From sequence record NC_049386.1: a stretch of 32,662 nucleotides of DNA; one strand, 5' to 3'. Shown here one piece after another: positions 29,622 to 29,954 of this stretch. The stretch's first letter is position 1; every line of letters begins with the position of its first letter. Both the position numbers and the translations under genes were made by a program. Below the pieces are notes generated by a model. It saw only the letters and a list, made by a program, of their open reading frames with translations, ran no database searches and was not told the origin of the DNA. The DNA is from Peduovirus P22H1.

Positions 29622-29954
29622 ATGGAGTTGCCTATGTTACACAGAGCCCTTCGTTTAATAAGGCAATACCATAAAGAGTCATTGGTTGATTTATCAACAT
29701 CTTTAGGTATTCCAAAAGAAAAAATAGTAGAACTCGAAAGTGGGGTTTGGTCGCCTACAATTGATGTTTTACAGCGTTACGCCTCCCATTTCGATATGCC
29801 GGTATCTTCTTTAGTATTTTTTTCAGAATCGTTAGGTACGCAGGGGCGTTTATCTAAGCGTTTCCGTTTAAATTTAGCTGGTAAAGTATTAGATGTTATT
29901 GAGTGGGCGAATAAGAAAAATGAAAAGACGAATAAAACTCAAAATTTCCACTAA
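29622..29954 (+). CDS. XRE-family helix-turn-helix DNA-binding protein
   Basis: 110 aa; HTH pattern LRLIRQYHKESLVDLSTSLGIPKEKIVELESGVWSPTIDVLQRYASHF; directly upstream of and overlapping the RT ORF. Confidence 0.55.
   Translation: MELPMLHRALRLIRQYHKESLVDLSTSLGIPKEKIVELESGVWSPTIDVLQRYASHFDMPVSSLVFFSESLGTQGRLSKRFRLNLAGKVLDVIEWANKKNEKTNKTQNFH

Follow-up and report, generated by a model that had tools for sequence, protein, structure and literature searches.

Organization of the locus

In this work, the region behind the replication gene was analysed in a 32,662-nucleotide stretch of DNA from Peduovirus P22H1 (NC_049386.1), which is hereafter called the window. Positions 1-25000 of the window are 97% identical to P2-like Peduovirus genomes. 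The replication gene A (Phage_GPA) occupies 26695-29025 and is followed by a cassette that contains, on the + strand, a structured RNA with an embedded gene for a small protein (SP), a gene for a helix-turn-helix (HTH) protein, and a gene for a reverse transcriptase (RT). A gene for an FRG-domain protein lies convergent to these genes in the same P2 hotspot. A preliminary description of the DNA had recognized the HTH and RT genes; two parts of the same system that lie directly upstream of them, the 51-aa SP gene and the structured RNA, had escaped it. It is very probable that hybrid RNA, SP toxin, HTH, and RT make up a Type VI retron with all its parts, and that this retron belongs to the anti-phage cargo of a P2-like prophage, whose variable hotspot it occupies.

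The HTH gene and its product

The open reading frame listed on the + strand runs from the ATG at 29622 to the TAA at 29954 and has 110 codons. All 17 of the 17 aligned homologues start at the second Met of this frame (M5, nucleotide 29634), a GGAG is located 7 nt 5' of the ATG at 29634, and the PGAP annotation of a 100% identical locus in E. coli WP7-S17-ESBL-01 gives an HTH protein of 106 aa and an RT of 316 aa. Because the homologue starts, the GGAG spacing, and the PGAP start agree, the HTH gene was assigned to 29634-29954 with a product of 106 aa. Thus, the reading frame and its overlap with the RT gene, as given in the preliminary description, were borne out, and the proposed length of 110 aa had to be corrected. 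The collection contains the exact 106-aa protein, in a cluster with 34 member sequences that was seen on at least 1000 contigs, and homologues reach down to 41% identity, so that the reading frame is, judged by this recurrence, not a chance one. A weak terminator-like site at 29843-29864 inside the gene was within chance expectation in the terminator scan.

The assignment of the protein to the XRE type, made earlier from the letters, is right, although it is weak by Pfam alone. The Pfam model HTH_3 reached E = 0.009 and 16 bits, which is under its gathering score, and HTH_31 was likewise sub-threshold. On the other hand, the PADLOC model HTH_VI matched with E = 7.2e-30 and 101 bits, residues 5-96 of the reading frame covering profile positions 1-91 of 92. 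A profile built from 43 sequences of the HTH family matched CylR2, SinR, PezA, HipB, and DdrO in the PDB with E of about 1e-5. The AlphaFold2 model had a mean pLDDT of 75, with about 90 across residues 1-60, and it predicts a five-helix XRE/Cro-C1 domain (residues 1-60) followed by helices 57-71 and 77-99, of which the C-terminal one is of low confidence (pLDDT about 50). In a Foldseek search, residues 1-60 superposed on DdrO, SinR, and C.BclI with an rmsd of 0.8-1.2 Å over about 60 residues. The residues A5-L6-R7, R10, and H13 were invariant in the homologue alignment. The gene at 29634-29954 is almost certainly the HTH gene of a Type VI retron.

The reverse transcriptase and its overlap with the HTH gene

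As listed, the RT reading frame has 325 aa and begins at the ATG at 29893, which gives an overlap of 62 nt with the HTH gene. The RT homologues are almost all 316 aa long and their conservation begins at the Met at 29920; therefore, the RT gene was placed at 29920..30870 (+ strand, 316 aa), and the true overlap is 35 nt (29920..29954), with the RT in the +1 frame relative to the HTH gene. A Pfam RVT_1 domain was found in the protein, and the PADLOC model RT_VI matched it with E = 1.1e-105 and 350.9 bits over profile positions 1-278 of 279, compared with 151.8 bits for the next model, RT_III-A. The motifs NAKIH (NAxxH, region X) at 107-111, YVDD at 198-201, and VTG (region Y) at 244-246 are present, and N107, A108, H111, Y198, V199, D200, D201, T245, and G246 were invariant in an alignment of 27 RT sequences. 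By its profile, that is by the assignment to RT_VI against the other PADLOC retron models, the RT is a member of the Type VI clade (RT clade 3). Type VI was defined by Mestre et al. (2020; PMC7736814) as clade-3 retron RTs accompanied by a Cro/C1-type HTH protein of 91-110 aa (cluster 2_1). The window agrees with this definition by an HTH protein of 106 aa with the XRE fold, whose gene overlaps the RT gene by 35 nt. The preliminary description had pointed to retrons that have an HTH protein as accessory, possibly type VI of Mestre, and had suggested a profile comparison with the HTH proteins of known retron classes; the published definition and the full-profile matches to HTH_VI (E = 7e-30) and RT_VI (E = 1e-105) confirm that class.

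In most relatives that have the HTH gene upstream and an assignable RT start, the RT gene is in the +1 frame and overlaps the HTH gene by 11-44 nt. In a few distant relatives, the overlap is 1-4 nt or is replaced by a small gap. This is the pattern expected of translational coupling, for which the overlap is the likely site, and we infer that the two proteins are made in a coupled manner. The earlier suggestion of co-translation as one operon fits the conserved overlap.

Co-occurrence of the HTH protein with Type VI reverse transcriptases

One genome per species was scanned with the RT alignment, 80 loci were kept, and each of them was searched with HMMs for the HTH protein and the RT. When the count is limited to loci with an RT match of E<1e-100 and no less than 400 nt upstream, the HTH gene lies directly upstream on the same strand in 37 of 38. 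The sole exception is a Xenorhabdus copy with just 414 nt of upstream sequence and an RT match that begins at position 25 of the profile. When all 77 loci with enough upstream sequence are considered, 58 have the HTH gene directly upstream; beyond these, in two loci it stands beside an RT with a frameshift, and in three its place is taken by a divergent HTH gene. These counts agree with the figure of about 78% reported by Garcia-Rodriguez et al. (2026; bioRxiv 10.64898/2026.04.27.721009). The pairing recurs in unrelated contexts and genera, including P2-like prophages, an island near yeiP in E. coli C5, Vibrio, Shewanella, and Legionella. Absence of the HTH gene from homologous RT loci, which had been named as the observation that would count against its membership, was thus not what was found in the close relatives (37 of 38 with the gene).

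Some loci depart from this arrangement. Four loci (L041, L042, L045, and L047; Catenovulum and Pseudoalteromonas for the first three) lack an HTH gene; their RTs belong to the same clade (E about 1e-85). They have an SP-like reading frame of 88 or 60 aa directly before or overlapping the RT gene, with a basic N-terminus, a Trp-rich helix, and an acidic GDG tail, and they possibly represent an HTH-less sub-architecture. In Xenorhabdus hominickii, two identical copies in one genome (L039 and L040) have an intact HTH gene and an RT match that is split as by a frameshift, and a copy in X. koppenhoeferi (L007) has neither the RT N-terminus nor the HTH gene. These three are probably decaying copies.

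The small protein

The SP gene (29442..29597, + strand) encodes 51 aa, and 36 nt separate its end from the start of HTH. PGAP lists its product as a hypothetical protein in the identical E. coli locus. Its N-terminus is rich in K, its hydrophobic helix is rich in Trp, and its tail is acidic (FEGGDE). Of 60 loci with an HTH gene that were examined, most have a comparable reading frame of 47-65 aa, ending about 27-58 nt before the HTH gene, and the reading frames at this position in the relatives have in common the basic N-terminus, the Trp-rich hydrophobic helix, and the acidic tail. SP is predicted to be the toxic effector of the system, by analogy with the proteins studied by Zhang et al. (2025; bioRxiv 10.1101/2025.10.22.683967) and Garcia-Rodriguez et al. 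(2026).

A longer SP of 97 or 73 aa, starting at upstream in-frame ATGs, was considered as a fit to the cluster sizes of 75-79 aa in Mestre et al. (2020). It was excluded by 1-nt indels in homologues and by compensatory changes of the RNA. Besides Met1, the only invariant residues of the SP family are Q10-Q11. Their codons (GAACAGCAG) lie within the invariant 8-bp helix 29466-29473/29356-29363, which is formed with the upstream non-coding RNA, so the conservation of Q10-Q11 may be set by the RNA pairing and not by the protein.

The structured hybrid RNA

The hybrid RNA as a whole extends over about 29198-29625 (+ strand) and embeds the SP gene. Its non-coding, msr-msd-like 5' part covers 29198..29441, with an approximate 5' end. 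Because no Rfam family was found over 28500-32662 (evalue mode), the structure of the RNA was established by covariation. The fold of 29160-29640 was more stable than those of shuffled sequences (z = -4.8, 0 of 100). An alignment (A3) of 16 distinct relatives, namely E. coli variants, P2-like contigs of IMG/VR, Acerihabitans, and an enterobacterial MAG, gave an RNAalifold consensus with 120 pairs, in which 97.1% of the cells of the 16-sequence alignment are paired. In this alignment, which is dominated by close enterobacterial relatives, 22 pairs were changed on both sides, compared with 13.1 ± 2.2 in shuffles (0 of 500) and with 2-8 in slid controls, over which the structure is favoured because it was derived from the same alignment.

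The consensus fold starts with two small stem-loops (29206-29221 and 29223-29240) and a long stem with a length-variable apex (29249-29308), which is the candidate msd or DNA stem-loop. They are followed by a hairpin (29313-29339) with the sequence GGGCGAC in its loop, and a second copy of this repeat, GGGCGAA, begins at 29380. A long-range stem (helix 8) is formed by the 5' arm IR1 (29340-29351) and the 3' arm IR2 (29604..29616), which contains CCUCCC, and it encloses the SP riboregulator together with the SP coding sequence. It has 12 pairs, 9 of them invariant and 3 with one-sided changes, and 99.5% of its cells are paired. Within it, an invariant stem (29371-29378/29427-29434) sequesters the SP ribosome-binding site AAGGAG, and a small hairpin covers the SP AUG, so both the ribosome-binding site and the start codon lie within stems. 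The IR1/IR2 stem and the stem over the ribosome-binding site are backed by conservation, not by compensatory changes. The 8-bp helix that holds the Q10-Q11 codons connects an arm upstream of SP with an arm in its coding sequence, and further helices within the coding sequence show compensatory changes. In addition, a weak helix of 4 bp pairs 29198-29201 with 29622-25.

The CCUCCC of IR2 resembles an anti-Shine-Dalgarno sequence and is located about 10 nt before the GGAG and ATG of the HTH gene. It could alternatively pair with the ribosome-binding site of SP or with that of HTH. The segment 29070-29132, between the stop of gene A and the conserved RNA, is extremely AT-rich and has several overlapping inverted repeats. 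It is likely the promoter and insertion-boundary region of the cargo; a sigma-70 scan upstream of the hybrid RNA, with 29070-29132 included, gave no convincing promoter.

Genomic context and distribution

The P2 slot seems to hold two defence cargoes, since a gene with matches to FRG and PDC-S15 sits beside the retron. This gene (30979-32343, − strand) encodes 454 aa, with a C-terminal Pfam FRG domain (E = 2e-21) and a match to the PADLOC candidate defence family PDC-S15 (E = 7e-98) over residues 168-451; the N-terminal 165 residues had no match. The P2 old/tin locus is a cargo hotspot of P2-like phages that is known for retrons and other defence genes (Rousset et al., 2022; PMC9122126); the text searched there mentions retrons in the hotspot in general and not Type VI specifically.

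Of 5426 complete genomes of E. coli, about 100 have this cassette or one of its variants, with 60 copies at ≥99%, 28 at 80-90%, and 12 at 60-80% identity. E. coli has at least four distinct Type VI variants, three of them P2-borne and one chromosomal, and P2-like phages of Klebsiella have a copy of 80% identity. In two of the lower-identity variants, which were looked at more closely, the slot is the same and the neighbouring genes differ. The first, in a P2-like prophage of O157:H7 FRIK944 (L102), has a retron of 84% identity and three small hypothetical genes as co-cargo. The second, in a P2-like prophage of E. coli 65COLEC (L103), has a retron of 79% identity, and its co-cargo comprises a 266-aa hypothetical protein and a PAPS-reductase-family gene before gene A. 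In another locus (L001), the IS21-family element ISEc12 is located between the FRG gene and the portal gene. The fourth E. coli retron with the order SP-HTH-RT (L104; E. coli C5, NZ_CP010122.1 2219256-2220685) is not part of a P2 prophage; it belongs to an island of the chromosome and has yeiP, a DUF4236 gene, and a recombinase as neighbours. In a megablast comparison with the window, only its RNA and the start of SP matched (75% over window positions 29186-29522), so the RNA is better conserved than the proteins.

These distributions bear on whether the HTH protein could be an ordinary XRE repressor that acts on the transcription of the cargo island or of prophage genes and stands beside the RT by chance; the preliminary description had offered a transcriptional regulator of the island as its alternative. 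Many XRE antitoxins, HipB and similar proteins among them, also autoregulate their own operon. This habit, the canonical DNA-binding XRE fold of the N-terminal domain, and the AT-rich inverted repeats upstream (29070-29132) would all suit a repressor, but no operator was identified and the promoter scan upstream of the RNA was empty. Moreover, the match to HTH_VI has 101 bits against 16 bits for Pfam HTH_3, the HTH gene co-occurs and overlaps with Type VI RTs across unrelated contexts and genera, and SP-HTH-RT stays together while the cargo neighbours vary between variants. In both Vpa2 and Sen3, the two retrons described below, the HTH protein physically associates with the RT and prevents toxicity (Zhang et al., 2025; Garcia-Rodriguez et al., 2026). 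We consider a plain repressor very improbable, and the HTH protein is treated below as a component of the retron.

Proposed function of the retron

The SP-HTH-RT architecture with a hybrid RNA has been published for Retron-Vpa2 and Retron-Eco12 (Zhang et al., 2025) and for Retron-Sen3 (Garcia-Rodriguez et al., 2026). The window shows it by an SP gene directly before the HTH gene and by a structured RNA that runs through SP, with a long-range repeat and a sequestered ribosome-binding site. Zhang et al. (2025) studied Vpa2 of Vibrio parahaemolyticus and Eco12, an E. coli Type VI retron that defends against lambda vir. The hybrid RNA of Vpa2 has roughly 470 nt and unites the msr-msd with the SP message, SP is the toxin, and RT, HTH, and hybrid RNA co-purify (Zhang et al., 2025). 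Both the R7D substitution in the HTH protein and the loss of the non-coding part of the RNA were toxic. The msDNA of Vpa2 and Eco12 is undetectable at baseline and accumulates when a Red-type phage protein serves as the trigger, and in Vpa2 it derepresses the translation of SP, possibly via 7-nt direct repeats in two loops (Zhang et al., 2025). The control mode of Sen3, a Salmonella enterica retron of the cl2075 lineage, is different, and these are the only two Type VI retrons studied in this respect (Zhang et al., 2025; Garcia-Rodriguez et al., 2026). In Sen3, ssDNA and SP are constitutive and the control is post-translational, the HTH protein can neutralise SP when RT and ncRNA are absent and cells need it to be viable, and the inhibition of RecBCD triggers defence (Garcia-Rodriguez et al., 2026).

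We hypothesize that the retron of the window works in the Vpa2-type rather than in the Sen3-type mode, an assignment carried over on resemblance to which we give somewhat better than even chances. According to the two preprints, a single transcript would carry both the template of reverse transcription and the SP message, and the HTH protein would bind the RT and the RNA and keep the system silent, so its loss should be toxic. The HTH protein is probably made in a fixed ratio with the RT through the overlapping stop and start. In the Vpa2-type mode, the HTH protein would restrain reverse transcription and SP would stay untranslated. During infection, recombination or anti-RecBCD functions of the phage, of the lambda Red/Gam type, would let msDNA build up; the msDNA would then open the riboregulator, SP would be translated, and the infected cell would stop growing (abortive infection).

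A further thought, which is speculative and on present evidence unlikely to be right, is that the hybrid RNA may control the antitoxin (HTH) as well as the toxin (SP). Since the long-range stem stops shortly ahead of the ribosome-binding site of HTH, the CCUCCC lies in IR2, and the weak helix 29198-29201/29622-25 is present, a refolding driven by msDNA could act on the HTH ribosome-binding site. It could free the SP ribosome-binding site while the CCUCCC masks the GGAG of HTH, and a single step would then reverse the ratio of toxin to antitoxin. In that case, RNA pairing (29356-63/29466-73) and not protein function would maintain the invariant QQ codons of SP. A second, equally speculative thought concerns the slot of the retron, which in phage P2 is held by old. 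Exclusion of lambda by Old requires red and gam of lambda (the Spi phenotype), and on this premise two unrelated cargoes of one slot would sense the same phage functions.

The system itself is already known, and standard defence-finder models would call a Type VI retron here. The result is of little weight for discovery; it confirms that a Type VI retron can be recognized by a reading of the raw sequence. What was added in this work are the corrected starts, the 35-nt overlap, the SP gene, the RNA with its covariation support, and the assignment to a Vpa2/Eco12-like branch.

Comparison with known systems

The HTH protein has the five-helix Cro/C1 domain in common with HipB, PezA, SinR, DdrO, CylR2, and CapH, at about 1 Å over 60 residues, and several of these are antitoxins or defence-system repressors. 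Unlike these solved XRE proteins, the retron HTH has the RT, the hybrid RNA, and possibly SP as its known partners, and its C-terminal helices and invariant N-terminal ALRxxRxxH are family-specific. The P2 old/tin locus occupies the same slot as the cassette, after replication gene A and before the portal and terminase genes, but its content is different, old/tin in P2 and a Type VI retron with an FRG-domain gene in the window.

For Sen3, the likeness begins with the SP-HTH-RT organization and an HTH protein of the same cluster. Its RNA also resembles that of the window: a small stem-loop of 5 bp is located close to the 5' end, a long stem is variable, IR1 and IR2 pair and flank SP, and the SP ribosome-binding site is in a stem. 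The window retron, being of the same Type VI, could thus work like Sen3, with SP and ssDNA made constitutively, the HTH antitoxin binding SP via its C-terminal helix, and the inhibition of RecBCD firing the defence. Such a mode would be in line with the neutralisation of SP by HTH without RT or ncRNA and its requirement for viability in Sen3 (Garcia-Rodriguez et al., 2026). The window HTH is predicted to have six helices arranged as in Sen3, the C-terminal one at 77-99, PezA and HipB, which are antitoxins of the XRE type, are among the profile matches, and the order of toxin gene before antitoxin gene is compatible. On the other hand, the SP of Sen3 has 79 aa, begins with MKYETL, and has N- and C-terminal extensions, of which the additional amphipathic C-terminal one is the predicted HTH interface, whereas the window SP has 51 aa and aligns with the Vpa2 type, to which the Sen3 SP has negligible sequence identity. 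Furthermore, the window RNA has the Vpa2-specific repeats, and Eco12, the tested E. coli Type VI retron, resembles Vpa2 in having no detectable baseline msDNA. We regard the Sen3-type mode in the window as possible and rather improbable, and the two modes may not exclude each other. The length and the sequence of the window SP also argue against its placement in cl2075, one of the named SP clusters (cl2075, 2760, 3272, and 3897). A cl2075/Sen3-like lineage had been considered via a relative of 71-72% identity in Yersinia enterocolitica, and was rejected because this locus is P2-borne and has an SP of 51 aa compared with the 79 aa of Sen3.

The Vpa2-type mode is favoured because SP, the RNA motifs, and the protein identities of the window resemble Vpa2 and not Sen3. 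A V. parahaemolyticus locus from the RT search (L108) encodes a 55-aa SP with K15, I39, F43, and F45 and an HTH protein with R7; it was taken as Vpa2-like because these residues match the mutated ones of Vpa2 and the SP length matches the stated 55 aa. The motif 'YADD' quoted for Vpa2 was discarded as a marker of the locus, as both V. parahaemolyticus RTs have YVDD. The window is 54% identical to this locus in the RT, 50% in the HTH protein, and 24% in SP. The order of ncRNA, SP, HTH, and RT and the overlap of HTH with RT are common to the window and to Vpa2/Eco12, as are the SP ribosome-binding site and AUG in stem-loops and the long-range inverted repeat around the SP gene. The window SP aligns with the 55-aa SP, and both are short, with an invariant QQ near the N-terminus, a hydrophobic helix, and a GGD tail. 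A common hairpin, the IR1 sequence, and paired direct repeats of about 7 nt at the same offsets are found in both RNAs, GGGCGA(C/A) at -119/-62 from the SP AUG in the window and GGACGAA at -123/-63 in the V. parahaemolyticus locus. In addition, R7 of the HTH protein is conserved between Vpa2 and the window, and the host species, E. coli, is the same as that of Eco12. Unlike the Vpa2-like locus, the cassette of the window lies in a P2-like prophage hotspot. By resemblance, the retron of the window appears to be a member of the Vpa2/Eco12-like lineage, and would represent a natural, P2-prophage-borne member of it in E. coli. The variants of E. coli (three P2-borne and one chromosomal), Klebsiella, Yersinia, and Acerihabitans supply compensatory changes with which the riboregulator can be tested in the native host.
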